Source: Candidatus Eiseniibacteriota bacterium (lineage in GTDB: Bacteria > Eisenbacteria > RBG-16-71-46). Taken from it: DNA of 64,000 nt. Shown piece after piece: positions 1 to 16,554 of this stretch. The translations under genes were made by a program, and so were the position numbers. The stretch covers positions 896,001 through 960,000 of the forward strand of contig OY970178.1 in the NCBI GenBank assembly GCA_963707915.1, in the 5' to 3' direction. Position 1 is the stretch's first letter, and every line of letters starts with the position of its first letter. The notes beneath the pieces are model-generated. The model made no database searches. It saw only the letters and a program-made list of their open reading frames with translations, and was not told the DNA's origin.

Positions 1-376
1 AGAGCAGCCCCACCACGCCGAGGAACAGCGCGAGGCTCGCGGCGTGGAAGGCGAACGCCGACTCGCCGCTGGCGTGGGCCAGCAGCCAGAAGTGAAGCTG
101 CCGACCCACCGGGCGCACGAAATTGCCGATCGGGTCGGGTGAGGTGAGCGCCCCCCAGAGCGTGTGGTTCCGCGCCTGGTCGAGGAACAGGTAGTCGTCG
201 GCGAAGAACGGCGCGCGCAGCGCCGCGCGCTGCAGCCACGCCGCGGCCAGCAGGATGAGCGCGAGCACGGCCGGCCACGGCAGCACCGGCCACGGCTGCC
301 GGGCCGCGGGTGCGGCGGACTCGCGGGGCCCCGCGCCGGCCCGGGCGCGGCGTGACGGTCGGGACTTCCGCTTCAC
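1..376 (-). CDS. 5' part (runs off the left edge) of a GT-C-fold/TMTC-like membrane glycosyltransferase-like protein
   Basis: Not in the ORF track. Translation from GTG at 376 gives MKRKSRPSRR...WPAVLALILLAAAWLQRAALRAPFFADDYLFLDQ...GNFVRPVGRQLHFWLL...AFHAASLALF. TM1 followed by a DD motif and an RP loop is typical of GT-C enzymes. Confidence 0.65.
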   Translation of the reverse strand, partial: MKRKSRPSRRARAGAGPRESAAPAARQPWPVLPWPAVLALILLAAAWLQRAALRAPFFADDYLFLDQARNHTLWGALTSPDPIGNFVRPVGRQLHFWLLAHASGESAFAFHAASLALFLGVVGLL

Positions 377-590
377 GGGGACGTTCGCCCGCGGCGCGCC
401 GGCAGCGGCCGCACGGCAACGGCGCATCGCACGATGTCGAGGGACCTGGGCTCCATGGGGATCCTCCGGGAGGAGCGGCGCGACGACCCTGGGAGCGGAC
501 GAGTGTAGCGCGGCCGGCCGGGCGGCGTGAAGCGACGACCGCCCTCCCGGACGGCGCGCCTTTGACTCAGGCGCACCGCGACGGATGCGG

Positions 591-596
591 TACAAT
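591..596 (+). promoter_or_regulatory. -10-like hexamer TACAAT, probably driving a leaderless transcript
   Basis: TACAAT lies 6 nt upstream of ATG 603, which has no Shine-Dalgarno sequence. Confidence 0.4.
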
Positions 597-602
597 CTCC
601 CC

Positions 603-881
603 ATGGGTCACACGGGTCACAGCCACCGGACGGCCACCGCCCTCCGGCTCGCCGCGCTGGTCGCGCTGCTCGGGGCACCCCCGCCCCCCGCGGCCCGGCA
701 GGCGAGCGCCACCGCGTCCGCCCACGCCGGCGCGACCATCGTGGCCGGGATGGGCATCGTCGTGCTCGCGAGCGCCGCGACGGATTCCGTCGCGACCTTC
801 ACTGTGACGGGCGACGGAAGCGCCGGCTGTTCCGTCATGCTCACGGGCGGCGGGTGCGAAGTGACGCTGGTCCACGACTAG
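603..881 (+). CDS. small secreted protein (92 aa), weakly DUF4402-like
   Basis: Signal-peptide-like N-terminus, then ASATASAHAGATIV...ATFTVTG...VTLVHD beta-rich segments with two Cys. Confidence 0.45.
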   Translation: MGHTGHSHRTATALRLAALVALLGAPPPPAARQASATASAHAGATIVAGMGIVVLASAATDSVATFTVTGDGSAGCSVMLTGGGCEVTLVHD

Positions 882-935
882 CCGGGTCGCGGCGGGACGG
901 ACCTGGGGATGTGATGGCCGCGGCCGGCGGGCGCC

Positions 936-1976
936 TCAGGCGGCGAACGCGACGCGGTTGCGCCCGTCCGCCTTCGCCCGGTAGAGCGCGCGGTCGGCGG
1001 CCTCGAAGATCCCCGGCGCGTCGGCGACCGCCGACGGCACGGCGGGCGTCGTCGCCACCCCCAGGCTGAGCGTCGCGCGCACCACTCCGGCCGCGGTCTC
1101 GAAGCGCTCCGCCTCGACCTTGCCCCGCATGCGCTCGGCGATGGTCCGCGCGGCTTCGCCGTCGCAGTGCGGCAGCACCACCAGGAACTCCTCGCCGCCG
1201 AAGCGACCGACCGCGTCGTACGGCCGCAGCGCCGCGCGCAGGCTCTCCACCACGCCGAGCAGCACCCGGTCCCCGGCGAGGTGACCGAAGGTGTCGTTGA
1301 CTTTCTTGAAGTGGTCCACGTCCGCCACGATCACCGACAGCGGCGCGCCCTCGCGCACCGCGCGCGCCAGCTCCCGCGCCAGCACCTCGAGGACCGCGTC
1401 CCGGTTCCAGACCCGGGTGAGCGGGTCCAGCATGCTGCGGCGCCGCAGCTCGTCGCGCTCCGCGACGATCGCGGCCTGGCCGTCGCTGAGCGCCTGCATC
1501 TGGAGCTCGTCCTGCACCCAGCCCGCCAGGAAGCGCAGCGTCTCGACGTCGGCCTCGCGCAGCCGGCGCGGCCGCGTGTCCATGACGCACAGCGTGCCCA
1601 CCTTGCTGCCGTCCGCGAGCCGGAGCGGGTGCCCCGCGTAGAAACGGACGAACGGCGCCCGGGTCACCAGCGGGTCGTCGCGGAAGCGCCCGTCCTCGAG
1701 CGTGTCCGGCACCACGAACGTGTCGTCACCCAGGATGGCGTAGGCGCAGAACGAGGTCGCGCGCGCGGTCCGGGCGGCGCGCCCGCGGTGGGCGGCCTTG
1801 AACCCCTGGACGCGCGAGTCCACCAGGGAGACCGATGCCATCGGCACGCGGAGGAAGCGTGCGGCCAGGCGCGTGATGCGCTCGAAGCGTTTCTCGGCCG
1901 GCGTGAACAGCGGCCCCAGCTCGCGCAGCGTGCGCGGAGAGAAGGCCGGGTCGGGCGTCAGCGGAACGTCGAACAT
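936..1976 (-). CDS. GAF-sensor diguanylate cyclase
   Basis: GAF motifs (RFERITRLA, SFCAYAI, FYAGHPL, GTLCVMD), DPLT, DVDHFKKVNDTFGH, an RPYD I-site and a GGEEF active site. GAGGAGGG SD upstream of ATG 1976. Confidence 0.92.
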   Translation of the reverse strand: MFDVPLTPDPAFSPRTLRELGPLFTPAEKRFERITRLAARFLRVPMASVSLVDSRVQGFKAAHRGRAARTARATSFCAYAILGDDTFVVPDTLEDGRFRDDPLVTRAPFVRFYAGHPLRLADGSKVGTLCVMDTRPRRLREADVETLRFLAGWVQDELQMQALSDGQAAIVAERDELRRRSMLDPLTRVWNRDAVLEVLARELARAVREGAPLSVIVADVDHFKKVNDTFGHLAGDRVLLGVVESLRAALRPYDAVGRFGGEEFLVVLPHCDGEAARTIAERMRGKVEAERFETAAGVVRATLSLGVATTPAVPSAVADAPGIFEAADRALYRAKADGRNRVAFAA

Positions 1977-2198
1977 CGCTCGTCTTCCCTCCTCTCGTCC
2001 CATCCCGGCGCAGCACGGCGCCCGGCCCGCCGCAGGCGGGCCCGACGGCGGCACCTGCCCTTCTGATGCAGGCGGCCGGTCCGGGGGCGCACCCGTTCAC
2101 GTCCCCGTGACACTCCGCCGGCGCCTGCGAGGCCTCGGTGGGTGGCGGTCGCCGCGGGCCGGCCCGGGCCCGCCCTGCGCCCCGCCGGGAACTGGGAT

Positions 2199-3651
2199 AT
2201 GCTGCGGCGCTGGGAGGTGCCCATCGTGCCCGTGGAACGGAAGGGTGACCGGCCGCCCCGACGCTGGCCGGCCCCGGAGTGGTTCGTATTCGGCTTCGTC
2301 GCTCTGATATTGGTCCGCCAGCTCCTGCTGCCCCCGATCGTGGGCCTGGCCGACAACGGTGACTTCGTGCGCGTGCTCGGCCCGCTCGGCCTGCAGCACG
2401 AGGCCACGCAGTGGAGCGAGCGATACTTCGGCTGGCTGGAGCAGACCTACGTGCCCGGGCCGAGCGAGCCGGCCCAGCTGCTGTCCTCGCAGCTGCTGCT
2501 GAGCGGGCTGGCGAAGGCGCTGGCCGGCCTGGGCTCGCGGGACGGGAGTCTGGATATCCGCACGCAGGGGGCGGTGCACCTGGTGCTCTACCTGCTGGGG
2601 ATCGCCCTGATCCTGCGGGCGGCCCGCACGTTCCGCCCTCCGGCGCGCGCGACGATCTGCGCAGCCATGCTGCTGGCGGCGACCGACGTGGCCTGGGTGG
2701 CGCCGCTGGCCTCGTTCTACGCCGAGGCCGCCACCCTGGTCTTCCTCGCCCTGCTCGTCGGCTTCGGCCTCCTGGCGCTGCGGGACGACCGCGCCCGTCC
2801 CTGGGCGCTGCCCGGATACTTCGTGGCGGCGGCCCTGTTCGTCGCGGCCAAGCCCCAGAACTACTTCCTCGCGCTGCCCCTGATGGCGCCGCCGGTCGCG
2901 CTCCTGCCACGCCTGTCCCGGGCGCGCGGGCGCGTCGCGGTGGTCGCGGCGGCCATCGCCATCGTGGCGCTCGGAGGGTTCCTGCAGACCCGGGTGCCGT
3001 GGGCGCAGCGCATCCGCAACCTGTGGAACGACGTCTTCTACACCATCCTCGCCGACTCGCCCGACCCGCGCGGCGACCTGGCGCAGTTCGGGCTGGGCCC
3101 GGAGCTGGCGCGCTTCGCCGGCGTGCCCGCCTTCGCGGACTCCATCCCGATCGAGGCGGTGACGGCGCCGCTTCGGGTTCGGTGACGTCCTGCGCTTCCA
3201 CGCGCGCCATCCCCTGCGCTTCCTGGGCACGGCCTCGGCGTGCGCGCGCAGCACTTTCGTCTGGCGCGACCCGCGCATGGGCAACTACACGCACGAGTCC
3301 GGCCGTCCGGCCGGCACGCTGGCGCGCGACTTCTCGGCCTGGAGCCGCGTCGAGGGCATGCTCCTGCCGCGCTCCCTGCTCTTCCTGGTCCTCTTCCTGG
3401 GCGGGGTGATGGCCGTGGCACTGGTCGAGGCGCAGCGCGCGGGCATGGCGACCGCGGCCGGGGGCACGGCGTGGATGTGCGCCGGGCTGGCGCTGGCGGC
3501 GGGCATGGAATTCGGCGTCTGCGTGGTCGGCGACGGCCTCTACGACATCGTCAAGCACCTGTACCTGTTCCAGCTGCTCTTCGACGCCTGCCTCTTCGCG
3601 GCGATCGCCTGGGCCATCGGCCTCGGCACCCGCGGGCTGTCGCGGCTCTAG
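2199..3651 (+). CDS. polytopic membrane glycosyltransferase, WsfD-like (GT-C type); frameshift near 3170
   Basis: PPIVGLADNGDFVRV motif, multiple TM helices, AKPQN. The reading continues in a second frame (FGFGDVLRFHARHP...MGNY...GDGLYDIVKHLYLF) to TAG 3651. Start codon uncertain. Confidence 0.7.
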
Positions 3652-3667
3652 GTTCGCCCCCCGCGAC

Positions 3668-5368
3668 CTACCACTCGCGGAAGATCCCCAGGCTCGCGCC
3701 GCGCACGATGTAGAAGGGCGTGTCGCCGTAGTCCACCTTGGCGTTCAGGCCCCACTGGGCGTCGAACCACTGCGAGTAGCCGAGGTTGAAACCGCTGCCG
3801 CGGTAGTCCACCAGCGCCTTCCCGGGGCCCACCAGCTGGTACGAGACGTTGCCCACGTCGTACCCGACGCCGATCGACAGGCGCCGCCAGACGACGTAGC
3901 TCAGCCCCACGCCACCCGAGGCCGACTGCGTGGCGCCCGGCTGCCCGATGTCGAGGCGCGCCTGCGCGCTGTAGACCCAGTGCGGCGTGTAGCGCACCAG
4001 GCCCAGGCCGACGCCGTCCGAGCGGTTCTCCCCCTTGCTCTGGATGCGCGTGTAGCCCAGCGTCGTGACCACGCCCGCCAGCGGGCGGCTCACCGCGGCG
4101 TCGAGCCGATAGCGGTTGGCGATGAAGTCGCCCGTGCCCGACGACGCGCCGAGCGTCACGCTGGTCTTGCCGAACCAGTGGGCGTACGAGAGCCCGCCGT
4201 CGAGGCTCTCGTCGCCGAAGCGGGCGGAGCGCCCGGCCTCGGCGCGCCAGGCCCAGCGCTCCGCGCGGCCCAGGCCGGCGCGCAGGAACTCCCCGTCGGA
4301 GTCGCCGTAGCCCTCGGTGTAGTGGCCCCAGGCGCCGCCGATCTCGATCGAGCGCGTCAGCGCGGGCGCGCCCCACGCGCCGCCCGCGCCCGCCGCGAGC
4401 AGCACCAGCGCCGCCCCGACCGCGGCGCTCCGCGCGCCGTTTCCGTTCGCCCCGCGGCCGCCGTTGCCGCCGCCGTTGCCGTTGCCGTTGCCGTTCCCGT
4501 TCTGGCGGCCCGCCCAGCGGGCATCCTCGGCGCGCATCGGGTTCCGCCAGCTCACGCCCCAGGCGTAGAACGAGATGAACACCAGCACGTTCACCGTCAG
4601 GCCGAAGACGAAGAACATGAGCGGCATGAACAGCAGCGACAGGTGGTGGATGACGTAGGCGTGCACCACGTACTGCAGCGGCACCAGCACGAGCATGTGC
4701 AGCATCGTCAGCAGCGCGAGCAGGGCCTTGCGCCAGAGGCTGAAGTCGAGCACGAAGTAGGTGAAGCCGAGCATCACCGGGATGAGCGAGATCAGCATGA
4801 GGTCCGCGATGAGCATCCCGTGGACGTAGCCGCTGCCGTCGTAGGGGAAGGCCCACGGCCAGAGCCCGAAGAACAGCTGTGCGCCGGCCTGGAAGAACGC
4901 GAGCAGGCGCAGCACGTAGCGCAGCGGCAGCCACCGCAGCGGCACCGCGAACGAACCGAGCCCGATGACCAGCACGAACGCCAGGCCACCCCACCACAGC
5001 GCGCTGCCCGGCAGGCCGGAGCCGTAGTGCAGGAACGGCACGTCGAACCGGAGCAGGCCGTAGAAGTCGTAGGGCACCAGCGAGACGTGGCCCGGCAGGT
5101 CCACCGCGCCGCGCCAGAACTCGAGCATGCCGACCCACAGGCGCGCGAGCGGACCGAGCAGCAGCAGGTAGGCGGCGAACAGCAGCAGCGCGAGCAGGGA
5201 CGCCGGCACCAGCTTCGCCGGCTGGACCGGCGAGACGCGCAGCGCGCGGTGGGCCGGGATATCGCCGCCGCCCCAGCCGCGCTGGCGCAGCCGCAGCACC
5301 TCGCGGCGCGTCGCGGCGTCGGCCCATGGGAGTTGCGCGTCCAGCAGCAGGTGACGCGAGGTCGCCAT
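3668..5368 (-). CDS. in-frame fusion: ~6-TM inner-membrane protein + Asn-Gly linker + internal signal-like segment + YaiO-family outer-membrane beta-barrel
   Basis: Residues ~50-275 are hydrophobic helices, followed by an NGNGNGNGNG linker and ARSAAVGAALVLLAAGAGGAWGA. The rest is amphipathic beta-strands ending GASLGIFREW (terminal aromatic residue). Confidence 0.7.
   Translation of the reverse strand: MATSRHLLLDAQLPWADAATRREVLRLRQRGWGGGDIPAHRALRVSPVQPAKLVPASLLALLLFAAYLLLLGPLARLWVGMLEFWRGAVDLPGHVSLVPYDFYGLLRFDVPFLHYGSGLPGSALWWGGLAFVLVIGLGSFAVPLRWLPLRYVLRLLAFFQAGAQLFFGLWPWAFPYDGSGYVHGMLIADLMLISLIPVMLGFTYFVLDFSLWRKALLALLTMLHMLVLVPLQYVVHAYVIHHLSLLFMPLMFFVFGLTVNVLVFISFYAWGVSWRNPMRAEDARWAGRQNGNGNGNGNGGGNGGRGANGNGARSAAVGAALVLLAAGAGGAWGAPALTRSIEIGGAWGHYTEGYGDSDGEFLRAGLGRAERWAWRAEAGRSARFGDESLDGGLSYAHWFGKTSVTLGASSGTGDFIANRYRLDAAVSRPLAGVVTTLGYTRIQSKGENRSDGVGLGLVRYTPHWVYSAQARLDIGQPGATQSASGGVGLSYVVWRRLSIGVGYDVGNVSYQLVGPGKALVDYRGSGFNLGYSQWFDAQWGLNAKVDYGDTPFYIVRGASLGIFREW
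4440..4502 (-). repeat. AACGGC/AACGGG hexamer repeats encoding the Asn-Gly linker
   Basis: The plus strand reads gccgttgccgccgccgttgccgttgccgttgccgttcccgtt. Confidence 0.8.
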
Positions 5369-5369
5369 C

Positions 5370-6494
5370 TCAGTTCGTTCCTTTCGCCGGCGCCACCGCT
5401 GCGCCCCCGCGCGGCAGCACCACGCCGCCCCCGTGCGCCCAGACCGTGCCGTGCACCGCGCTGCCGGCCTCGATCTCGAGGCAGCGCGCGCTGAGCGTCG
5501 TCGGCCGCTGCTCCGAGCCCAGCCTCGCCCCCGCCTCGAGCCGCCCGTCGCGCTCGGCGACCACCGGCCCGTGGATCTCGCACCCGCGCCCCACCACCAG
5601 GTCCCGCCCCGAGACCACCGAGCCCTCCACCTGCACCCCCGCCCCGAGGACCAGGTCGCCGTGACTCTTCAAGCTGCCGACGATCCGCGTGCCCTCTCCG
5701 ACCTGCAACTCGCCCGTGACCACCAGGCTGGACGTCACCAGCCGGTGCGCGGGGATCTCCAGCCGCTGCCGCACCAGCCAGCGCCCCGCGGCGTCCTCGA
5801 CCAGGTTCGGCACGTCCTTCGCCAGGTACGGTTCCAGCCCCGGGCGCACCGGCCCGGGCTCCACCGGCTCGCCGAACGCGACCGTCGGCGCGTGGAGACG
5901 CTCGAAGCGGCAGCCCTGCTCCAGCGACATGGCCACGTCCGCGGACGCGCGCCCGTGCAGCGCGCAGGACTCCCGCGCCAGCAGGCGCGCCCGTGCGTGC
6001 AACCAGCGCAGCGACCAGCAACCCCGGCCGAGCCGCAGGTCGCCGCCGGCCAGGATGGCGCGGCACACGCTCTCCTCGCCGACCTCCACGCTGCCGGCCG
6101 CGTAGGTCTCGCGCGGGAAGATCGCCCGGGACGGCAGGCCGAGGTCGCCGCAGCCGAGCACCACCGCCTCGCACGTCGGCGGGCCGGCCGGCGCGGTCGT
6201 GAGCGCGGGCATCGCCCCGGAGGGCAGCGCGAGGTACGGCGTGCCGTCCTCGAGCGTGCCGTTCACCGCAGCGCCGCCCGCCCGGCACGCGGCCAGGGCC
6301 GCGCCCAGGTGGCTCTCCACCCACGCCTGGAACGCCGTCGCGAAGTGCCGGATGTCGACGTCGGACGTGCGCACCACGCGCAACGGCTTGATGTCCGTGC
6401 GGCGGCGCGCCTCGAGCAGCGACGGCAGCAGCGGCAGGGCGGCCCAGCCCAGGAAGAGCGCGAGACAGGCCACGACCGTCAGGATCAAGGCCAT
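5370..6494 (-). CDS. membrane-anchored beta-helix protein, bactofilin/polymer-forming-cytoskeletal-like (374 aa)
   Basis: ATG 6494 overlaps the GT2 3' end. N-terminal TM (MALILTVVACLALFLGWAALPLLP) followed by RRR. Two blocks of ~17-aa repeats (e.g. LVVTGELQVGEGTRIVGSLKSHGDLVLGAGVQVEGSVVSGRDLVVGRGCEIHGPVV). Confidence 0.72.
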   Translation of the reverse strand: MALILTVVACLALFLGWAALPLLPSLLEARRRTDIKPLRVVRTSDVDIRHFATAFQAWVESHLGAALAACRAGGAAVNGTLEDGTPYLALPSGAMPALTTAPAGPPTCEAVVLGCGDLGLPSRAIFPRETYAAGSVEVGEESVCRAILAGGDLRLGRGCWSLRWLHARARLLARESCALHGRASADVAMSLEQGCRFERLHAPTVAFGEPVEPGPVRPGLEPYLAKDVPNLVEDAAGRWLVRQRLEIPAHRLVTSSLVVTGELQVGEGTRIVGSLKSHGDLVLGAGVQVEGSVVSGRDLVVGRGCEIHGPVVAERDGRLEAGARLGSEQRPTTLSARCLEIEAGSAVHGTVWAHGGGVVLPRGGAAVAPAKGTN

Positions 6495-7942
6495 TCTTCC
6501 CCCCCGTCGCGGTAGGCGTGCGGGTGCTCGGTCTTCTGCCAGCGGACCCGCGCGCCCGGCCGGCGCGGCAGCAGGATCTGCAGCAGGGTCTCGTGCGAGA
6601 TGGCGAAGAGGCCGACCAGGAAGCCCAGCATGATGAGCGGCAGCAGGCGCACCCGCGCACGCGAGCCGTCCAGGTAGGCGGCCGCGCTGATCTCGAAGAA
6701 GATGGCGAAGTTGCCCAGCGCGCTGTACGAGGTGACCAGCAGGATGACGATCAGGCCGGGCCGCGTCTCGCCCAGGTACCACAGTGCCATCGCCAGCAGC
6801 CAGCCCAGCAGCAGGACCGGCGACATCAGGTAGACGTTGAGCAGCAGCCAGCCGTCGAGCTTCTCGCGGAAATGCGTCCGCGGCCCCGTCAGCAGGTGCG
6901 TGGCGTGCGCCCACAGCGCCTCGTTGTGCCCCCGCGCCCAGCGCCGGACCTGCCGCATGCGCTGCGGCCAGGTGGCCGGCACCTGCTCGTAGCACTCCGA
7001 GCGGTTCTGGTAGACCGTCTTCCAGCCGCCGCGCAGCAGCCGGAACGTGGCGTCGGTGTCTTCGGCCAGCGTGTCCACGCGCCAGCCGCCGACGCTCTCC
7101 AGCGCCCTGCAGCGCACGCCGCCCACCGTGCCGCCGTACTGCGGCACGAGCTTGAGGTTCATGCGCGCCTGCTGGTCCACCTGGTAGCCGCCGGTGCGCT
7201 CGAGGTCGAGCAGCCGCGTGAGCAGGTTCTGGCCCACGTTGTGCGGCACGACGCGGCCCATCACCGCCCCCACCTCGGGGTCGAAGAACGGCGCCACCAG
7301 CTGCTTGATCAGCCCGTGCCCCGGGATGTAGTCGGCGTCGAACACCAGCGCGATGTCGGTGGTGACCAGCTTCATCGCGTCCCGCAGCGCCGCGGCCTTG
7401 CCCGGCTCGCCCTGCTTGCGGTGATAGGGCGCCACGCGGCCCGGGTAGCGCGCCGCGAACCCGTCGATGATCTCGCCGGTGCGGTCCTTCGAGCGGTCGT
7501 CGACCGGCAGGATGTGCAGCCGCCCGGCCGGATAGTCGACCTCGAGCAGCGCCGTGAGGACCGCCCCGATCACCGGCTCCTCGTCGTGGGCCGGTACCAA
7601 CACCGTCACCTCGGGCCAGTCGGCGGTGTCGATGTCGAGATACGGGTGGCGCTGGGTGCCATGCAGGCGGTTGAGCGTGAACCAGTAGTGGCGGACCACG
7701 TAGACGCAGATCAGCAGCAGGATCGCGTACAGCGGGTAGAGCATCGCCAGCACGTACCACGGGCGGGGGAAACGCTGGCCGAACGGGACCGGCGCGTCGG
7801 CGGACACGGCGAAGGCCACCGCCACGACACCCCACGCCGCGAGGGCGACGCCGAGAGCGGTCAGCCAGGTCCGCAGGTGGAATCGGACGCGTTCGCGTGT
7901 CACCAGGCGGCCCCCCGGATGCACAGAATCCCGATGCTCCAC
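6485..7942 (-). CDS. processive GT2 glycosyltransferase (cellulose synthase/PgaC-IcaA-like)
   Basis: VDDRS, GKAAAL, FDAD, LAEDTD and QVRRW (D,D,D,QxxRW), flanking TM helices, C-terminal WQKTEH. No PilZ domain. Start is GTG 7942 or GTG 7903. Confidence 0.9.
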   Translation of the reverse strand: MEHRDSVHPGGRLVTRERVRFHLRTWLTALGVALAAWGVVAVAFAVSADAPVPFGQRFPRPWYVLAMLYPLYAILLLICVYVVRHYWFTLNRLHGTQRHPYLDIDTADWPEVTVLVPAHDEEPVIGAVLTALLEVDYPAGRLHILPVDDRSKDRTGEIIDGFAARYPGRVAPYHRKQGEPGKAAALRDAMKLVTTDIALVFDADYIPGHGLIKQLVAPFFDPEVGAVMGRVVPHNVGQNLLTRLLDLERTGGYQVDQQARMNLKLVPQYGGTVGGVRCRALESVGGWRVDTLAEDTDATFRLLRGGWKTVYQNRSECYEQVPATWPQRMRQVRRWARGHNEALWAHATHLLTGPRTHFREKLDGWLLLNVYLMSPVLLLGWLLAMALWYLGETRPGLIVILLVTSYSALGNFAIFFEISAAAYLDGSRARVRLLPLIMLGFLVGLFAISHETLLQILLPRRPGARVRWQKTEHPHAYRDGGEEWP

Positions 7943-7963
7943 AGAATACTAAAGGAAGCCACT

Positions 7964-8647
7964 TCAAAATGCGACATAGATCTTGATCCCGCTGAACTGG
8001 ACGACCCCGTTACGCACGGCGAAATGGGGCTCGCGGTAGGTGCCCGCCGGGTAGGTCTTCTCGGAGCGGTAGAGGCGGACTCCGTCCAGCCAGACCTGCA
8101 CGCGGCCGTCGCGCACCGCGAAGCGCAGCAGGTGCCAGTCCCCCTCGCTCACCGGCCGGGACGGCTTGATGACGCGCAGGACGTAGTCGACCCGGTCCAC
8201 CATGTGCCGCGCGCTGACCCGCCGCTGGCCGCCGAAGAGCACGGCACCGCTCTCGTGGTGCAGTTCGCGGCTGTCCCGCGTGAGCAGGTGGGCTTCGGCC
8301 ACGCGTCCCGCGGAGTCGGGCAGGAGGCGCACGCGGGTCTCGAGCAGGAAGTCCCCGCCGTGGTCGAACGGGGTGAAGTAGACCGCGAAGTCACCGGCGT
8401 CGTCGCGTCCCTCGAGCACGCCGTCCACGACCCGCCAGTCGCCCCAGCTCCACGCGCCGGCGTACGGCCCCTTGCGCACCTCCCACGCCATGGCCTGCCG
8501 CCACGTGGCGCCGTCGAGCACCAGGTCCGCGTTCGGCAGCGGGCGGGGCACGCTCTCGTAGAGACGCCGCAACGGCGCCCGATCCGTGCGCAACCCCAGG
8601 ATCGCAAGCACGAGCAGAATGGCGGCCACAATCAATGCTCTTCGCAT
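7964..8647 (-). CDS. exported ConA-like/DUF1080-type (3-keto-disaccharide hydrolase-like) beta-sandwich protein
   Basis: Signal/anchor MRRALIVAAILLVLAILG; motifs WRVVDGVL, GDFLLETRVR, WHLLRFAVRDGRVQVWLDG, VQFSGIKIY. Confidence 0.65.
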   Translation of the reverse strand: MRRALIVAAILLVLAILGLRTDRAPLRRLYESVPRPLPNADLVLDGATWRQAMAWEVRKGPYAGAWSWGDWRVVDGVLEGRDDAGDFAVYFTPFDHGGDFLLETRVRLLPDSAGRVAEAHLLTRDSRELHHESGAVLFGGQRRVSARHMVDRVDYVLRVIKPSRPVSEGDWHLLRFAVRDGRVQVWLDGVRLYRSEKTYPAGTYREPHFAVRNGVVQFSGIKIYVAF

Positions 8648-8964
8648 CAGCCTCGGTCCCGGTCCACGTCACGCGGGGGATGCAGCATAACACCTCGGGC
8701 AAGCGACATCGCATGGGCGACGCCGGCTGCCGCGGCCGGGCCCGGCTCGCTCGGCCGCTGGTCACCGGCATCCAGCCGCGCTATCCTGCCCGTTCGGACT
8801 CGCACACGAGCGCCGCACCCTCCCGGGTTATCGGCACGCGCGAGCCGAGTCCGCAGGGGCAGGCCCGACGAATGGCGCGCGGAGGCCGGGGCACGGATCC
8901 GGCGCGCGGGCCGCGACGGGATCGCGCTCGAGCGACCCGGGGCGCGCAGACGGCTGCACGATGT

Positions 8965-9053
8965 GCCGGAGTGGCGGAACTGGCAGACGCGCGGGACTCA
9001 AAATCCCGTGAGGCTCAAACCTCGTGTGGGTTCGACCCCCACCTCCGGCACCA
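8965..9053 (+). tRNA. tRNA-Leu (anticodon CAA), class II with long variable arm, CCA encoded
   Basis: GCCGGAG/CTCCGGC acceptor stem, D-loop TGGCAGAC, anticodon stem CGGGA-CTCAAAA-TCCCG, GGTTCGACCCC T-arm, 3' ACCA. Confidence 0.97.
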
Positions 9054-9068
9054 ATACCACAACAAGTT

Positions 9069-9092
9069 AGGGCGCCCCTTGTGAGGCGCCCT
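9069..9092. terminator. hairpin downstream of tRNA-Leu, possibly a bidirectional terminator
   Basis: Inverted repeat AGGGCGCC...GGCGCCCT. Confidence 0.5.
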
Positions 9093-9268
9093 GGTCGTTG
9101 GAGTCGTCCAACGTAGCAGCTACCTGGCAACGGCATCGGCTTTCGCCGCACGTGCTGCCGCCGCCAACCGATTGAGTGTGGCGCAGAGAACGCAACGGGC
9201 AAGTCTGCGCGGGGCCTCGTGATTGGCCGGCGCGGCAGCTCGCGCGCGTCGCATTCATTCTGCTGGGC

Positions 9269-10045
9269 TCAATGGCCAACCGAAACGGGTGGCTCCGGGG
9301 TCCGACGTCTGAAGACGTAGATCGCCCAACCGAGCGTGTCTCGACCCCAGCGAAGGTATGCTGCCCTCTCCTTGGCTACTCGGCGCACAAGCTCCGGCAG
9401 ATCCGGGTCATCCGAATGCGAGCGCGCGTACTCGACCGTAGCGGCCCACTGCAGTCCTTCGTATCTATCCCAGTCGTCCTTGTTGCTCACAAGAGTGTGG
9501 ACGAGGTCGAGCCCCCGTTCCTCCCCCACCTCGACGTTGCCAGCGTGCGTCCCGAACGCCTCCCTCCCCTCGCCGAGGACCTGGAGGTACTCCTCAGATG
9601 GCTCCTGCAGCCAGTACGGCTCGCCCGTGATCACCCAGCCGCCGGGCACGACCATGCGTATGAGCGCATCCACAGTGCCGGCATGCCCTCCGTAGACCCA
9701 GCTGGCGCCAATGCAGGAGGCCACGGTGAAGCTGTGAGGCTCGTCCGGCTGGAAGTCGGCGCCGTTCATCTGAAGGAAGACGACCTGCGCGGCGGGCACC
9801 CGCACCCTGAGCCTACTTCCGGCTTCCGCAACGAAGAACGGTGAGAGGTCGATGCCCACGCAGCCGACCCTGTAGGCCTCGGCCAGGCGAGTCAGGAACT
9901 CGCCCTTGCCGCAGGCGATGTCGACCACGCGCGCGTTGGGCGGAAGCCGCAGCAGTTCCACAAGGCGGCCCAGCTTCTCCTCGCTCGTGGGATTGCAGAT
10001 CACGTGCTCGCGATGGGTGATGTCGTAGAACTTCCACGTGTCCAT
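9269..10045 (-). CDS. class I SAM-dependent methyltransferase (YjhP-like)
   Basis: HVICNP, motif I VVDIACGKGE, GIDLS, SCIGASW, PGGWVITGEPYW, DWDRYE. Confidence 0.88.
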   Translation of the reverse strand: MDTWKFYDITHREHVICNPTSEEKLGRLVELLRLPPNARVVDIACGKGEFLTRLAEAYRVGCVGIDLSPFFVAEAGSRLRVRVPAAQVVFLQMNGADFQPDEPHSFTVASCIGASWVYGGHAGTVDALIRMVVPGGWVITGEPYWLQEPSEEYLQVLGEGREAFGTHAGNVEVGEERGLDLVHTLVSNKDDWDRYEGLQWAATVEYARSHSDDPDLPELVRRVAKERAAYLRWGRDTLGWAIYVFRRRTPEPPVSVGH

Positions 10046-10068
10046 AGTCTAGTCTCGCGGCCCCCGAC

Positions 10069-11343
10069 TCACTTCCCCCAATTCACACCCAGGCTCGCCT
10101 GCCAGCCAGTCACGTCGTAGTCGGGCCGGTGGATCAACCGCTTGAACTCGGCGTACACCTGCTCCTCCTCGGCGTTCTTCGGATCTGCGCCATCACGGAA
10201 GCGTCCGCGTTGGGCTTGCAGCCACCGGGCCTCGAGAGTCCCGTGGAAGCGGTTCCAGATGTGGAACTGGTAGCCCGCCACGAACGTAACGCCGTAGCTG
10301 TAGTACGCGCCATCGGTCTTGACGTCGAGCGTGTCGAGCGTGGGCTCCTCCACGACGCGCAGGCGGATGGTCTCGTCGTTCTCGATGAACGCGATGCCCA
10401 GGCCGTAGTAGGCGCCGATTTCCCGCGTCCAGTCCCCACCGCGCCAGCGGCGCAGCACCTCGACCGTCGTGGGGACGCTGAGCACGTCCATAAAGTTGGT
10501 CTCCACCTTCACCGTCGGGTCGGTGACGTCCACCTTCGTGCGCGCAGACGAGAAGTTGAGCGCCGCGCGCGCGCCCCAGCACGGCCGGAACCAGTAGGAG
10601 TAGTCGAACCTCACTCCGCCGAGCGTGCCGTATACGCGGTTCATCTCGGACGCGGTCAGTTGGTGGCCGGTGCTGGATACGCCGACGAATCCACGCCAGG
10701 GCCCGTAGGGACTCGCGCGTTTCCAGCCGGGCGCCGACGCGGGCCCCTGCGGCGCGCCAGGCGAGGACGTGGTCGCGGTCACGAGTTCCTGGACCAGCGC
10801 CTTGACCAGGTTGAATCCGGCTTGCTGCGCGGCCTGCTCCGGCCGCAGCGGACCGGAGCACTTCCCCTCCTTCAAGAACCTCCACAACTCCCGTCCGGTT
10901 CGCGTGTCGGTGCACACGAAGCGCGCCTGCACACGTGCCTGCGCACCGAAGAAGCGCGCGAACGTCGAGGGCACGTCGATGTAGGTGATGGTGGTGGCGA
11001 GGTCAAGGCGCTGAGGTTCCGACGCCGGGCCGGGCGCGCCGGCCGCGGCGTCGGCGGCGGTCGTGTCGACGAGCGTGGAGACGGGGGCCGCGGTCTCCAC
11101 GACTCGTTCGAACACGCCTCGCTGGCTGAGTTGCTTGATGGCGCGGGCGCGCAGCATGACCTCGAGCCCGCTCGGGAAGCCCTGGGCGGCCGCATCGCGG
11201 TCCACCACGAACGGCGCCACACCGGCCACCGTGTAGGCGGCAAGCCTGCCCGCCGTCGGCTCGGCGGACGCACGGCTGCCGGTCGGGAGCAGCGCCGCGG
11301 AAAGGGCCAGTGCCAGAGCGAACCACGTGCGGGGATTCGGCAT
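10069..11343 (-). CDS. exported protein: N-terminal DUF4410-like alpha/beta domain + C-terminal outer-membrane beta-barrel
   Basis: GAGGAGG SD and ATG 11343; Sec signal; ARFFGAQARVQARFVCTDTRTG; P/A/G-rich linker; amphipathic strands ending GWQASLGVNWGK. Confidence 0.6.
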   Translation of the reverse strand: MPNPRTWFALALALSAALLPTGSRASAEPTAGRLAAYTVAGVAPFVVDRDAAAQGFPSGLEVMLRARAIKQLSQRGVFERVVETAAPVSTLVDTTAADAAAGAPGPASEPQRLDLATTITYIDVPSTFARFFGAQARVQARFVCTDTRTGRELWRFLKEGKCSGPLRPEQAAQQAGFNLVKALVQELVTATTSSPGAPQGPASAPGWKRASPYGPWRGFVGVSSTGHQLTASEMNRVYGTLGGVRFDYSYWFRPCWGARAALNFSSARTKVDVTDPTVKVETNFMDVLSVPTTVEVLRRWRGGDWTREIGAYYGLGIAFIENDETIRLRVVEEPTLDTLDVKTDGAYYSYGVTFVAGYQFHIWNRFHGTLEARWLQAQRGRFRDGADPKNAEEEQVYAEFKRLIHRPDYDVTGWQASLGVNWGK

Positions 11344-11659
11344 CGAACGTTCCTCCTCGGCCGCCGCGACATAACCGCTGCGGAGCGTGAGCGTAGGAAC
11401 ACTCATACGGGCAGATCCGACTATATGCCCGTCGTGGTCGCCCGCACCACGGAAAGTTCGCCCGCCTCGCCCGCCTCGCCCGCCTGGGCGCGAGCGAGCC
11501 GCGTACCGGTGACGCTGACCTCGCCCCGGTCACTCGGGCACTCACAACCCCGGAGGACCGAAGGACTCGTTACGCGTAGGACGGGGAGCCGGTCGATCGC
11601 GGCGGTGGCCGACGACGTCCCCGGCGACGATTGTCGGCCGGCGGGATCGCGTGCGGCAG

Positions 11660-12355
11660 CTACGAGCGGCCGAACTCCTCGTCCCCCGGCCGCTCGGCAT
11701 CTTCGGCGTGGTGCTTGATGACCCGCGCTTCGGTGATGAAGACGACCTCTTCGGCGATGTTGGTGGCGAGGTCGGCCACGCGCTCGAGGTTGCGCGCCAC
11801 CAGGATCAACTCCATCGCCCGGTTGATGGTCATCGGGTCCTCGACCATGAAGCCGACGAGATCGTGGAAGACCTGTCGGTTGAGGGCGTCCACCTCGTCG
11901 TCCCGGGCACACAGCCGCCGCGCACTCTCGGCGTCACGCCTCACGAACGCGTCCAGCGCCTCGTGCAGCATGCCGCCCGCGAGCCCGGCCATGCGCGGGA
12001 TGTCCACCAGGGGCTTGAGCAGGGGCTCGCCCGCCAGCCGGAGCACACCGCCTGCGATGTTCACCGCGTGATCTCCCACGCGTTCAAGATCGTTGTTGAT
12101 CTTGAGGCCCGCCGTGATGAACCTCAGGTCACGGGCCATCGGCTGCTGGAGCGCGAGCAGGCGCACGCATCGCTCATCGATGTCGATCTCCATGCGGTCG
12201 ATGACCTGGTCCTCGCCGAGGACCTCCTCCGCCAGGCTCACGTCGAGGCGGCGCAGCGCCTCGACCGCCTTGAGCACGATGCCCTCGGCGCGCCCGCCCA
12301 TGAGCAGCAGCTGCTCCTTGAGACCCTCCAGCTCGCGTTCGAAGTGTCGTTCCAC
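11660..12355 (-). CDS. phoU: phosphate signalling complex protein PhoU
   Basis: ALQQPMARDLR, DLERVGDHAVNIA, NLERVADLATNIAE. Confidence 0.96.
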   Translation of the reverse strand: MERHFERELEGLKEQLLLMGGRAEGIVLKAVEALRRLDVSLAEEVLGEDQVIDRMEIDIDERCVRLLALQQPMARDLRFITAGLKINNDLERVGDHAVNIAGGVLRLAGEPLLKPLVDIPRMAGLAGGMLHEALDAFVRRDAESARRLCARDDEVDALNRQVFHDLVGFMVEDPMTINRAMELILVARNLERVADLATNIAEEVVFITEARVIKHHAEDAERPGDEEFGRS

Positions 12356-12379
12356 GTCGGTCCCCTGTGGATCGCGGCG

Positions 12380-13120
12380 CTAGCCGAAGCGCCCGGTGAT
12401 GTAGTCCTCGGTGAGCTTCTGGCGCGGCCGGGTGAAGAGCTGGCGGGTCTCGCCCACCTCGATCAGCTCGCCGACGAGCATGAAGGCGGTGCGGTCCGAG
12501 ACGCGGGCCGCCTGCTGCATGTTGTGCGTCACCATCACGATGGTATAGCGCTCCTTGAGCTCGAGGACCAGCTCCTCGATGCGCGCCGTGGCCGTCGGGT
12601 CGAGCGCGGAGGCCGGCTCGTCCATCAGGAGCACCTCGGGCTCCACCGCCAGCGCGCGGGCGATGCAGAGACGCTGCTGCTGGCCGCCCGAGAGGGCCAG
12701 GGCCGACTTCCCGAGCCGGTCCCGCACTTCGTCCCACAGGGCGGCGTGCCGCAGGCCGGCCTCGACGCGCGCCTCCAGTTCGGCGCGATCCCGCAGGCCG
12801 AGCAGGCGCAGGCCGAAGGCCACGTTGTCGAAGATGGACTTGGGGAATGGGTTCGGGCGCTGGAACACCATGCCGACACGGCGGCGCAGCTCCACCACGT
12901 CGGTCGCGGCCGCGTAGACGTCGAGGCCCGAGACCCGCACCTCACCCTGCACGCGCACACCCGGGATGAGGTCGTTCATGCGGTTGAAGGAGCGCAGCAG
13001 GGTGCTCTTGCCGCAGCCCGAGGGCCCGATGATGGCGGTGACGCTGTGCGCGGGCACGTCGAGCGTGACCTGCTTGAGTGCGTGGTGCGGCCCGTACCAC
13101 AGGTCGAAGTCGCGTGTCAC
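12380..13120 (-). CDS. pstB: phosphate ABC transporter ATP-binding protein; true start may be GTG 13257 with a frameshift near 13150
   Basis: [57 protein letters not shown]. Confidence 0.96.
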
Positions 13121-13258
13121 GACGCACGGCTCCGCCGCCGCTGGCGCGTGGCGGCCCCCGCGGCGGCTCCTTCTTCGGCCGGCGCTGCATGGGCAGCCTC
13201 GACGCGCCGGTCCTCCGGCAGGATGGTGCGGATCGTGGGCGGGGTCTCCACCGTCACC

Positions 13259-14144
13259 TCAGTTCCTCCCCGGCAGGCGTCTGAGCGTGATGCGCAGGAC
13301 CGCCGAGAGCAGCGTCACCAGCATGAGCAATACGAGCGCCCCGGTCCAGGCCTGGCGGTTCCAGTCCTCGTAGGGCGCACGCGCGTAGTCGAAGATGAAG
13401 ACCGGCAGCGAGGCCATGGGCTGGTCGAGCCGCAGCGACCAGAAGCGGTTGCCGAGCGCGGTGAAGAGCAGCGGTGCGGTCTCGCCCGCAGCGCGCGCGA
13501 TCGCCAGCATGGTGGCGGTCACGATGCCGGCCGAGGCCGAAGGGATCACCACCTCCTGGATGGTGCGCCAGCTGCGGCGCCCCCAGCGCCAGCGACGCCT
13601 CGCGGTACGAGCGAGGCACGAGCCGCACCACCTCCTCGGTGGAGCGCACGATGGTCGGCAGCATCAGGATGCCCAGCGCCACGCCGCCGGCCAGCGCGGA
13701 GAAGCGCCCCATCGGGACCACGACCAGCCCGTAGGCCGCCACGCCCACCACGATCGAGGGCACGCCGGCCAGCACGTCGGCGGTGTAGCGGACCAGTGCG
13801 GCGAAGCGCCCGTGACCGTACTCGGAGAGCCACACGCCCGCGCCCACGCCGACCGGCACCGCGATCACCGCTCCGAGCCCGACCAGTACGAGCGTGCCGA
13901 CGATGGCGTTGGCCATGCCGCCACCGGACTCACCCACCGGCTTCGGCATGTGCAGGAAGAAGGCGAGATTCAGCGCGGGCAGCCCCTTCGCGAGCAGGTG
14001 CCAGACGATGAGCGCCAGGGGCAGGATGACGATGGCGGAGGCGATCCAGCAGGCCGCCAGGTTCGCGGCGTTCCACAGGCGGCGATCCCACGAGGGCCCG
14101 CTCGGCCACAGTCGCCTCAAGGTCCTAGGCCGCGCCGGAGACAT
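13259..14144 (-). CDS. pstA: phosphate ABC transporter permease PstA; frameshift near 13573
   Basis: GGGMANAIVGT, LAGVPSIVVG, REASLALGA. Continues in another frame with ARAAGETAPLLFT. Confidence 0.93.
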
Positions 14145-15120
14145 CGCGCCTCCCTCCCGTGGCCCAGTGCACGAGCACCCGGGCCACGGCGTTCACCACC
14201 AGCGTGAGCACGAACAGCACCAGGGCGATCTCGATCAGAGACGAGAGGTACAGGTCGCCCGTGGCCTCGGTGAACTCGTTGGCGATCACGCTCGCCATGG
14301 TCGAGCCGGGCGCGAGCAGCGAGGCGGAGATGCGGTTGCTGTTGCCGATCACCATCGTGACCGCCATGGTCTCGCCCAGCGCACGCCCCAGCGCCAGGAT
14401 GATCGCACCGAGGATGCCGGGCCGCGCGGCGTCCAGCACGACCCCGATCGCCTCGCTGCGGGTCGAGCCCAGCGCCAGCGCGGCCTCGCGCAGCGTCCGC
14501 GGCGTGGAGAGCAGGATCTCGCGCGAGAGCGAGACGATGGTGGGCAGCACCATCACGGCCAGCACGATCCCGGCGTTCAACATGCCGATGCCGAACGGGA
14601 AGCCCTGGAAGAACGGCAGGAACCCCAGGTGCCCGACGAGCCACGGCTCGACCACGGTGCGCAGGAAGGGCGCGAGCACGAACAGCCCCCAGATGCCGTA
14701 GACGATGCTGGGGATGGAGGCCAGCAGCTCCACCACGAAGGCCACCGCGTCGCCCACGCGCCGCGGCGCCAGCTCGGCGAGGAACACGGCCGCGCCGAGG
14801 CCAAGCGGTACGGCGAGCAGCATGGCGATGGTCGAGGAGACCACGGTGCCGTAAAGATACGGCAGCGCCCCGAATCTACCCGCGACCGGATCCCACTCCG
14901 TGGAGGTGAAGAAACGCCAGCCGAAGGTCCGGATGGACAGCCCCGAGCCGCGCGCCGACTCGTAGACGATGAGCGCGGCGATCACGAAGATGAGCAGTGC
15001 GAAGCTGGTCAGCAGCCCCCGGTAGGCTTCATCGGCAAACGCCCAGCGCCGCGCGGCCCCGGGCGGGCGTGCAGGCCATGGCGTGGCCACGGCCTGCGCG
15101 GGGACCGTCCGTTCGCTCAA
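14125..15120 (-). CDS. pstC: phosphate ABC transporter permease PstC
   Basis: WDPVAGRFGALPYLYGT, ELLASIPSIVYG, LGRALGETMAVTMVIGN; TTG start. Confidence 0.95.
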   Translation of the reverse strand: MSERTVPAQAVATPWPARPPGAARRWAFADEAYRGLLTSFALLIFVIAALIVYESARGSGLSIRTFGWRFFTSTEWDPVAGRFGALPYLYGTVVSSTIAMLLAVPLGLGAAVFLAELAPRRVGDAVAFVVELLASIPSIVYGIWGLFVLAPFLRTVVEPWLVGHLGFLPFFQGFPFGIGMLNAGIVLAVMVLPTIVSLSREILLSTPRTLREAALALGSTRSEAIGVVLDAARPGILGAIILALGRALGETMAVTMVIGNSNRISASLLAPGSTMASVIANEFTEATGDLYLSSLIEIALVLFVLTLVVNAVARVLVHWATGGRRDVSGAA

Positions 15121-15142
15121 CTCGAGAGTCCTTCCATCCCGC

Positions 15143-16492: not shown

Positions 16493-16521
16493 GTTACGGC
16501 GCGGTTACCGCCCCATGACGT
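16493..16521 (-). promoter_or_regulatory. Pho box (three 11-bp-periodic half-sites) upstream of pstS
   Basis: The minus strand reads GTCAT-ggggcg-GTAAC-cgcgcc-GTAAC, matching PhoB GTCA(T/C) direct repeats with 11-bp periodicity. Confidence 0.75.
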
Positions 16522-16554
16522 CGGAGGAAATTCGACGGTCCGGGGCCGGCCGGC

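Follow-up and report, generated by a model that had tools for sequence, protein, structure and literature searches.

Synthase-dependent systems such as those for cellulose, PNAG, alginate and Pel are central models of biofilm matrix production, and the Pga system is controlled by c-di-GMP. To our knowledge, all four of these systems rely on TPR proteins to cross the periplasm, and c-di-GMP acts as a switch in most of them. In cellulose synthesis, the processive GT2 BcsA is paired with BcsB, a membrane-anchored periplasmic carbohydrate-binding partner. The uncharacterized E. coli cluster yaiS-yaiP-yaiX-yaiO encodes a GT2, a beta-helix-type protein and a YaiO barrel, and a deacetylase is encoded close by. 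In the E. coli system formed by NfrAB and WecB, an outer-membrane protein accompanies the GT2 synthase; PMC8669472 places it under c-di-GMP control and postulates that its polymer, the NGR glycan that serves as phage N4 receptor, is based on ManNAc and fed by a UDP-GlcNAc 2-epimerase.

Here, we analyzed a four-gene locus in a 64,000-nucleotide stretch of DNA from a Candidatus Eiseniibacteriota bacterium (the window). We think it fairly probable that the four genes encode a single envelope-spanning synthase-dependent machine, in which the fourth product is cleaved and the polymer probably contains N-acetylhexosamines.

Four packed genes around a membrane GT2 synthase

ORF analysis places four adjacent genes, g1 to g4, on the minus strand between positions 3668 and 8647, in reading frames backed by GC3 frame analysis. 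g1 (7964-8647, 227 aa, ATG start) is followed after 21 nt by g2 (6485-7942, 485 aa, GTG start), which overlaps g3 (5370-6494, 374 aa, ATG start) by 10 nt, and a single nucleotide separates g3 from g4 (3668-5368, 566 aa, ATG start). These coordinates agree with the tight co-directional packing described in an earlier note on this DNA, and profile searches with Pfam and NCBIfam likewise bear out its statement that PilZ, TPR and deacetylase families are absent from the four genes.

The g2 product is a predicted membrane GT2 synthase with two N-terminal and three C-terminal helices and a cytoplasmic GT-A domain, matching Glyco_tranf_2_3 at E 1.4e-30 and ending ~35 residues past the last helix. The full D,D,D,QxxRW set and the membrane helices previously ascribed to it were found, the motifs reading DAD202, EDT (D295) and QVRRW331, and residues D149, D202, D204, D295, Q331, R334 and W335 do not vary among 58 sequences. 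In a pattern check, all 15 module GT2s examined carried QxxRW, as did PgaC, NfrB and BcsA, whereas YaiP and ArnC did not, in agreement with the proposal that g2 is processive. TPR domains occur in 2 of the 120 GT2 homologues listed. As a processive GT2, g2 would polymerize a nucleotide sugar and thread the chain across the inner membrane.

Upstream, g1 encodes an N-terminal membrane anchor and a ConA-like/DUF1080 (3-keto-disaccharide-hydrolase-like) domain, whose match to PF06439 (3keto-disac_hyd/DUF1080; E 2.2e-5, 25 bits) lies below the cut-off of 26.8. P0352, in which DUF1080 and GT2 are fused and which itself scores 37.4 bits against PF06439, aligns through its N-terminal 225 aa with the full length of g1 (35% identity, E 7e-47); P0321, P0376 and P0379 are fusions of the same kind. 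In the fused forms, a positively charged N-flank is followed by a first helix, the domain, a second helix and the GT domain, and the g1 domain is probably periplasmic. On that side of the membrane, this lectin/glucanase-like domain may bind or trim the emerging chain, a role resembling that of BcsB.

A conserved module that differs from described systems

The order GT2, beta-helix, six-helix, YaiO is kept in 11 of 11 genome loci wherever the contig allows. We compared 91 loci in all, including 11 genome loci and the best 80 of 570 metagenome relatives. Within this set, with L007 left out as frameshifted, YaiO adjoins the six-helix gene in 47/47 loci whose flanks reach at least 900 bp on either side, and the GT2 and beta-helix genes are both present in 25/25 loci with at least 6.5 kb upstream. 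The same four genes are kept in two different gene orders, and natural fusions join the parts of the module pairwise, including beta-helix with six-helix in P0019 and six-helix with GT2 in P0066. Co-occurrence in other genomes, which had been anticipated, extends across phyla: the module was found in Eisenbacteria-like bacteria, Gemmatimonadota and other poorly studied phyla, and is common in metagenomes from soil and sediment (one metagenome scan gave 570 relatives), with a patchy distribution in its own phylum (6/206 genomes). By sequence comparison, the GT2, beta-helix, six-helix and YaiO genes are thus a conserved module, and our literature search found no paper describing it.

PgaABCD and IcaADBC resemble the module in having a PgaC-like GT2 with 2+3 helices (PgaC is 25% identical to g2, E 2e-22), a small synthase-bound membrane partner, an outer-membrane barrel and a CE4-like gene, the latter found here in distant relatives. 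However, PgaC_IcaA, the top NCBIfam match of g2, is reached at only 108.4 bits against an equivalog cut-off of 422.3, the six-helix partner has no similarity to the two-helix PgaD, the YaiO-type barrel carries no TPR, the module has a bactofilin-like subunit and a DUF1080 domain in addition, and the window cluster lacks a deacetylase, no CE4 family having been found in it. In BLASTP, neither PgaD nor PgaA was significantly matched by g1, g3 or g4. The likeness to NfrAB and WecB extends to the epimerase gene, which lies within the operon in most distant relatives of the module, whereas NfrB matches g2 at E 1e-3 over 121 aa only, nothing matches NfrA (990 aa, compared with a 230-aa barrel here), g2 has no detected counterpart of the c-di-GMP-binding C-terminal domain of the NfrB type, and the E. 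coli nfr region (ybcH, nfrA, nfrB) has no annotated six-helix or beta-helix partner. As for the yai cluster, YaiP shares 24% identity with g2 (E 7e-10) but has no QxxRW in a pattern search, YaiX bears the annotation of a putative acyltransferase, the six-helix gene is absent, and the kinship of YaiO with the g4 barrel is seen via the family profile only. BcsA also matches g2 (E 9e-15), but the module has no PilZ domain, BcsB homologue or BcsC-type TPR barrel. In these profile and BLASTP searches, none of the accessory subunits belonged to the Bcs, Pga, Pel, Alg or Nfr systems, in keeping with the distinct synthase-type machine that had been proposed.

The polymer and its destination

By our own reading of the neighborhood tables, 18 of the 25 long loci contain a UDP-GlcNAc 2-epimerase gene and 16 of them contain a CE4-like gene; Pfam matches in relatives reach E 1e-96 for the epimerase and, for the CE4-like gene in L088, 24.1 bits against a cut-off of 23.1. 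Judging from these distant relatives only, the polymer is probably N-acetylhexosamine-based, of the GlcNAc/ManNAc type. No epimerase, CE4-like or GH-like gene was found in the window cluster, where the branch to which it belongs has a DUF1080 gene and a GT-C-like neighbor instead; because its accessory genes are different, the polymer of this branch may differ as well. Three epimerase genes lie elsewhere in the source genome, unlinked to the cluster. The earlier description of a minimal system devoid of a deacetylase therefore suits this lineage but not the wider family, which usually has both the CE4-like and the epimerase gene.

CE4-like and GH-like genes are typical of secreted-polymer systems, and their presence in relatives argues against a glycan or glycolipid that stays bound to the cell, or a glycan of the periplasm, with YaiO as an anchor or an unrelated pore. 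Several observations would suit such a product: g1 to g4 encode no TPR or other periplasmic bridge, YaiO has no known published function, its gene figuring mainly as a PCR marker in the 25 papers listed of 65 with the word, and large membrane proteins adjoin the cluster, namely a GT-C-like transferase in 7 of the 91 loci (best 80 of 570 relatives included) and X680 in 7 further ones. Yet the processive motifs, QxxRW among them, do not vary, and YaiO, besides its adjacency in every informative locus, is repeatedly fused to a synthase partner, so that we regard a cell-bound or periplasmic product as unlikely. In the exporting machine that we favor, the YaiO barrel would let the chain pass across the outer membrane.

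A bactofilin-like beta-helix protein

The g3 product (5370-6494) is predicted to contain an N-terminal transmembrane helix, a further helix and two right-handed beta-helix domains, of which the second (~231-360) is bactofilin-like. Its match to Pfam Bactofilin (PF04519; E 2.8e-4, 21.5 bits) is below the cut-off of 27.9, which some homologues exceed (P0172 with 29.4, P0266 with 32.3). In the AF2 model (pLDDT 93.8, pTM 0.85), residues 244-342 superpose on the Thermus bactofilin 6ria_A with Z 7.6 and an rmsd of 1.7 Å over 88/90 aligned residues at 25% identity, which fits a bactofilin-like right-handed beta-helix core. The g3 protein departs from bactofilins by its true N-terminal transmembrane helix, its extra beta-helix domain and the location of its gene inside a glycan-synthase operon.

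The sequence score against bactofilins is, however, no stronger than that of the g3 profile against the left-handed acyltransferases GlmU and LpxD (E about 0.007-0.014), and g3 could instead modify the sugar or polymer enzymatically, for instance as an acyl- or acetyltransferase, in a cluster parallel to E. coli yaiP-yaiX-yaiO, where YaiX, the putative hexapeptide acyltransferase, is encoded between the other two. Some sources label g3 homologues "predicted acyltransferase (DUF342 family)," and weak LbH_EIF2B and Hexapep matches occur among them. Structure speaks otherwise, since left-handed acyltransferases fit the g3 model at an rmsd of ~11-12 Å; moreover, the g3-family profile matches a YaiX fragment with a probability of 1.5%, and no acyltransferase family passed any Pfam or NCBIfam cut-off, making an enzymatic g3 quite unlikely. 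Of the "bactofilin-like scaffold" that the earlier note had seen in g3, the fold is thus supported by the superposition, while the scaffolding remains a role that g3 may play.

A six-helix partner predicted to bind the synthase

The N-terminal part of g4 (residues 1-284; 4517-5368, minus strand) is an inner-membrane domain with six helices and a periplasmic beta-hairpin (94-114). It has no Pfam or NCBIfam match and belongs to an unnamed family that comprises 337 cluster representatives at E<=0.001. The AF2 model (pLDDT 91.3) shows six membrane helices and returned no PDB match (Foldseek, VIA). With six helices, both ends of the domain lie on one side of the membrane, and they must be cytoplasmic because the signal peptide that follows has to work; the beta-helix domain joined to the six-helix domain in P0019 is consequently also cytoplasmic. 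We thus picture g3 as held by a single-helix anchor, with its two-domain beta-helix and bactofilin-like end on the cytoplasmic side, where it would probably hold or cluster synthase complexes.

Prediction of a complex between g2 and the six-helix domain gave an ipSAE of 0.81 (median of 3 runs), compared with 0.00 for the best of 3 controls; at least 70% of contacts agreed between runs, and the partner pLDDT was at least 81. The same mark was attained by 116/157 solved complexes and 2/215 mismatched pairs, counts that apply only roughly because self-made alignments were used. The predicted interface takes in the nearly invariant H40-R41 segment, and the modeling supports binding of g2 to the six-helix protein. 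In this arrangement, the conserved cytoplasmic residues 40-48 and three membrane helices of the six-helix domain would pack on the C-terminal helices and active-site face of g2.

A neighboring cyclase

A GAF-GGDEF cyclase is encoded at 936-2054 on the minus strand, and the intact GGEEF and RxxD sites attributed to it were located (GGEEF at 286, RPYD at 277). The GT-C-like gene lies beyond the 3′ end of the operon, as had been stated, but on the opposite strand: it converges on g4 (stops at 3651 and 3668, 16 nt between) and separates the operon from the cyclase. Control of the machine by this cyclase through c-di-GMP, suggested in the earlier note, would accord with the intact sites and with known synthase systems, often c-di-GMP controlled, as PMC8669472 illustrates for Nfr, and binding of the PgaCD type, at an interface invisible to sequence, leaves no domain trace. 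Nevertheless, none of the 91 related loci (including the best 80 of 570 metagenome relatives) has a GGDEF gene, the convergent gene intervenes, no PilZ, MshEN or GGDEF I-site family was found in g1 to g4 with Pfam and NCBIfam, and no c-di-GMP riboswitch was found. The link thus finds no backing in these data, and we consider such control very unlikely.

Fusion through an internal signal peptide

The C-terminal part of g4 (residues 340-566; 3668-4351, minus strand) is a YaiO-family outer-membrane beta-barrel domain (TIGR04390, 84.3 bits, cut-off 32; PF19413, 35.2 bits, cut-off 23.9). Between the two domains (residues 285-339; 4352-4516, minus strand) lie an Asn-Gly repeat linker, encoded by (AACGGC)x7 at 4460-4501, and a signal-peptide-like segment with the hydrophobic core AAVGAALVLLAA followed by AWG|AP. 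In split relatives, the YaiO gene begins at this point with its own signal peptide, and a charged, hydrophobic segment of AxA type is kept in 10/10 fused six-helix and YaiO proteins examined.

Such fusions account for 6 of 19 long proteins scanned, and the two genes are separate in 17/20 loci with the same order and in 58/58 with the reverse order. The fusion of an inner-membrane protein to an outer-membrane barrel, previously taken as a design feature, is accordingly a minority, secondary state in which the YaiO signal peptide is retained. The six-helix gene and yaiO are joined here through YaiO's own signal peptide, which most likely still acts as export signal and signal-peptidase I site; if it does, two proteins result.

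The fused frame is very unlikely to be an assembly indel artefact hiding two genes. Such an artefact would suit the neighboring GT-C gene, which has a frameshift in this assembly when compared with the single ORFs of L004 and L005, so that indel errors are possible in this region; it would also suit the repeat-rich, GC-rich stretch at the junction and the split state of the closest genome locus (L001). However, independent fused frames exist in L002, L004, L028 and ten library proteins, the gene occurs in four other genomes of the genus, three of which have open frames of 541, 577 and 632 aa, and the 6-nt repeat unit means that slippage preserves the frame.

Implications

Neither the TPR nor the c-di-GMP accessory parts of the cellulose, PNAG, alginate and Pel systems were found in the module by sequence; instead, it would bring a cytoskeleton-type beta-helix and a membrane protein without a known fold into the synthase complex. 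More tentatively, the bactofilin-like protein and the six-helix protein, with its new fold, may be obligate subunits of a widespread, so far unstudied class of polysaccharide synthase complexes, the bactofilin-like protein polymerizing beneath the membrane to order synthases in arrays and the g4-type polypeptide being cut at its internal signal peptide in some lineages so as to yield an inner-membrane subunit as well as the outer-membrane pore, a possibility that we hold to be doubtful in its entirety. The locus makes it possible to test whether a bactofilin-like protein can serve a glycan synthase alone, and it places the YaiO barrel family in a functional context for the first time. It also provides a natural example of how one reading frame may encode both an inner-membrane protein and an outer-membrane barrel by means of an internal signal peptide.

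Gene Layout of the Cluster

Because the G+C content of the window is ~72%, it contains many spurious ORFs, and true frames were chosen with a codon-position G+C filter. The cluster comprises four minus-strand genes: g1 (7964-8647, 227 aa), g2 (6485-7942, 485 aa), g3 (5370-6494, 374 aa) and g4 (3668-5368, 566 aa), with a gap of 21 nt between g1 and g2, an overlap of 10 nt between g2 and g3, and a gap of 1 nt between g3 and g4. Upstream lies a tRNA-Leu(CAA) gene (8965-9053, plus strand); further upstream, 9269-19046 holds a methyltransferase gene, a protein of 445 aa that weakly matches a beta-barrel, and a PhoU/Pst ABC transporter/PhoR-PhoB-like phosphate cluster, none showing any sign of belonging to the module. 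Downstream, a PMT_2/GT-C-like gene on the plus strand (2067-3651; weak match, E 0.0015) is convergent with g4, the two stops lying at 3651 and 3668, and beyond it is a GAF-GGDEF gene (936-2054, minus strand). The operon anatomy is thus as described in the earlier note, except that the GT-C-like gene lies on the opposite strand, between the cyclase and the operon. In the window the reading frame of this gene breaks in two between 3167 and 3172, compared with a single ORF of 539-577 aa in three related loci (L002, L004 and L005); the gene is either a pseudogene or the product of an assembly indel.

Conservation of the Module

A pattern scan of species-representative genomes yielded 11 loci, labelled Candidatus Eisenbacteria, 'Fibrobacteraceae' MAGs and Gemmatimonadota, all of which keep the order GT2, beta-helix, six-helix, YaiO where the contig allows. 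A HMMER search of 1.84 billion proteins with the six-helix domain, the N-terminal inner-membrane part of g4, gave 337 cluster representatives at E<=0.001, mostly of 260-300 aa and standing alone, and a metagenome scan gave 570 relatives. Using local profiles, we analyzed the best 80 of these 570 together with the 11 genome loci (91 loci; L007, which is full of frameshifts, was left out of locus counts). In all 47 loci whose flanks reach at least 900 bp on each side, YaiO adjoins the six-helix gene, and all 25 loci with 6.5 kb or more of upstream sequence contain both the GT2 and the beta-helix gene. Moreover, the same four genes are carried in two different orders, which argues for function over inherited neighbourhood. 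The module is patchy in the window's phylum (6 of 206 genomes, 5 of the 6 in the window's genus, the window itself included). Of 19 long six-helix relatives scanned, six are fusions with YaiO; P0019 combines the beta-helix protein and the six-helix domain in one chain, and P0066 combines the six-helix domain and a GT2. These natural fusions tie the module parts together.

Other partners were also seen. In P0092 (1496 aa), DUF11 repeats plus a Por secretion tail are attached to the six-helix domain; in P0147, the domain is joined to a double zinc ribbon. A conserved 621-684-aa membrane protein with no Pfam match, X680, follows YaiO in seven loci of window-like order (L009:12995-15031, L010:4727-6781, L008:11754-13619 and four more loci). 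No mutual homology was detected between X680 (Gemmatimonadota loci), the GT-C-like genes and the CE4-like genes of more distant loci (hhalign probabilities <1%).

The GAF-GGDEF cyclase of the window is intact, and the earlier note had linked it to the operon through c-di-GMP. Nothing in the results supports such a link: a GGDEF gene was absent from all 91 loci searched, family searches of g1-g4 found no c-di-GMP receptor domain, and in an Rfam scan of 1-12000 only the tRNA was over threshold, with no riboswitch.

The Fusion of Six-Helix Domain and YaiO Barrel

The g4 protein begins with a ~285-aa part that matches no family; an Asn-Gly repeat and a hydrophobic stretch then lead into a YaiO domain (residues 340-566; TIGR04390, 84.3 bits versus a cut-off of 32). 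The Asn-Gly run of the linker is encoded by an (AACGGC)x7 repeat (4460-4501, minus strand), whose length differs among relatives. Some g4 homologues are full-length, and many, of 311-325 aa, stop just past this linker. Among the 10 readable genome loci, the two domains form a single frame in L002 and L004, and are encoded by separate genes, YaiO having its own signal peptide, in L001, L003, L005, L006 and L008-L011. In the larger locus set, the six-helix part precedes YaiO in 20 loci, 3 of them fused and 17 split, and follows it in 58, none of them fused. Both domains are present in 10 of 12 long library proteins, always separated by a charged, hydrophobic segment of AxA type; the remaining two have the six-helix domain and no YaiO match. 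At the same junction, g4 of the window reads ...ARSAAVGAALVLLAAGAGGAWG|AP....

The frameshift between 3167 and 3172 in the neighbouring GT-C-like gene, set against the single ORFs in L004 and L005, leaves some slight room for the fusion in the window being an assembly artefact, but of the four further genomes in the genus that carry a g4 homologue, three also show long open frames. The inner-membrane/outer-membrane barrel fusion proposed previously is genuine but secondary, most loci being split. Since the AF2 model of the six-helix domain has six membrane helices, both of its ends should lie on one side, and this side must be the cytoplasm if the signal peptide that follows is to work. In the simplest reading, fused g4 would be exported from an internal signal peptide and cut by signal peptidase I.

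The Synthase and Its Predicted Partner

The g2 protein is a GT2 (Glyco_tranf_2_3, E 1.4e-30) with two N-terminal and three C-terminal helices, whose DxD, ED and QVRRW motifs are invariant across 58 homologues. Its best named relative is PgaC/IcaA, at 108 bits versus an equivalog cut-off of 422; by BLASTP it matches PgaC (25% identity, E 2e-22), YaiP (E 7e-9) and NfrB (E 1e-3), and the nearest solved chains are the archaeal GT2 6yv7 (E 9e-17) and BcsA (E 9e-15). In a quick tree with E. coli PgaC, NfrB, BcsA, YaiP and ArnC, the reference branches are saturated (lengths 7.6-10) and nothing is placed, so that motifs were relied on rather than the tree.

The AF2 model of the six-helix domain (pLDDT 91.3, pTM 0.84) has a beta-hairpin in the first external loop. 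Foldseek returned no PDB match at E<=0.001, and VIA, run against 48,161 chains, gave helical hairpins only (best Z 7.5); the domain was therefore assigned no fold. An exosortase identity (Atlas score 0.76, 37% of cluster members) was rejected, the score being below the tool's 0.9 line and the nearly invariant residues including no Cys.

Complex prediction for g2 and the six-helix domain gave an ipSAE of 0.81 (median of three runs), compared with 0.00 for the best of three controls. Of 157 solved complexes, 116 attain this mark, as do 2 of 215 mismatched pairs; the counts are approximate here because the alignments were custom-made for this analysis. The runs share at least 70% of contacts, with a partner pLDDT of at least 81. 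On the g2 side, the predicted interface involves the three C-terminal helices (385-446) and cytoplasmic residues 313-329 near QxxRW, and on the other side helices and residues 40-48 of the six-helix domain, including the nearly invariant H40 and R41. As we know of no complex like this one, passing by recall of a training complex seems unlikely. The predicted binding expresses model confidence and is not a measurement.

The Beta-Helix Protein and g1

The g3 protein carries a single helix at its N-terminus and matches Bactofilin weakly (21.5 bits versus a cut-off of 27.9). In its model (pLDDT 93.8, pTM 0.85), a membrane helix (2-30) and a further helix (50-73) precede two beta-helix domains. Only VIA picked up the bactofilin likeness, aligning residues 244-342 with Thermus bactofilin (Z 7.6, rmsd 1.7 A, 88 of 90 residues), and Foldseek found nothing at E<=0.001; left-handed acyltransferase rows all have an rmsd of ~11-12 A, and the first beta-helix domain has a merely generic likeness to ice-binding-protein-type helices (Z 6.9, rmsd 3.2 A). 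By sequence alone, bactofilin and LbH enzymes are not separable for g3. A likeness to YaiX was dismissed (profile comparison probability 1.5%). The charge pattern past the anchor helix and the P0019 fusion indicate that the beta-helix is cytoplasmic. Bactofilins elsewhere have a scaffold or clustering role, and by analogy g3 may serve as a scaffold or cluster complexes. In the non-subscription literature searched, no bactofilin tied to a synthase operon was found; in the papers examined, bactofilin appears only as a morphological comparison or reference.

In g1, a hydrophobic helix at the N-terminus is accompanied by a weak 3keto-disac_hyd/DUF1080 match (25 bits versus a cut-off of 26.8). The protein shares 35% identity (E 7e-47) with the first 225 aa of P0352, a DUF1080-GT2 fusion whose DUF1080 score is above cut-off. 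About half of the 120 best GT2 homologues are 600-770 aa long, and a precomputed list gives PF06439 in 4 of the 120. Such DUF1080-GT2 fusions have a positively charged N-terminus, a helix, the DUF1080 domain, a second helix and the GT domain, a layout that would make DUF1080 periplasmic. In the close GT2 homologues P0317, P0357, P0371 and P0388, a C-terminal SPOR domain or TPR repeats stand in place of DUF1080; other periplasmic attachments therefore occur in this GT2 family.

Placement Among Known Systems and the Putative Polymer

The cluster is predicted to work like a synthase-dependent secretion system, having the two core features of such systems: a processive GT2 and, encoded in the same operon, a barrel. 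It has no TPR scaffold and no recognisable c-di-GMP receptor, and it lies outside the Pga, Bcs, Nfr and yaiSPXO families. No description of the module was found in the non-subscription literature searched, within the limits of which two of its subunit families have no described function; among the matches listed, yaiO appears mainly as a PCR marker, and the papers found on YaiO together with glycosyltransferases were irrelevant.

In the window's branch, accessories are limited to g1 and the adjacent GT-C-like gene. Most loci are more distant, with six-helix domains of 33-42% identity, and their genes run epimerase, GT2, beta-helix, optional GH-like gene, CE4-like gene, YaiO, six-helix. The epimerase gene is a clear UDP-GlcNAc 2-epimerase (E ~1e-96), and the CE4-like gene (~625 aa) has a weak Polysacc_deac_1 match (24.1 bits versus a cut-off of 23.1, in L088). 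By our reading of the locus maps, the epimerase is present in 18 and the CE4-like gene in 16 of the 25 long loci. In addition, a gene of ~340-380 aa with a weak, below-cut-off MGH1-like glycoside-hydrolase match (24.7 bits) lies within the module or next to it in 16 of 91 loci (L037:4174-5196, L050:4182-5219, L061:1470-2609 and others) and may be the module's hydrolase.

The epimerase and CE4-like genes of the relatives point to a ManNAc/GlcNAc-type, partly deacetylated polymer for the family. For the window's own cluster this reading is less secure; three epimerase genes occur in its genome, each distant from the cluster. The family polymer would then resemble PNAG, as well as the ManNAc polymer postulated for the E. 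coli Nfr system (PMC8669472).
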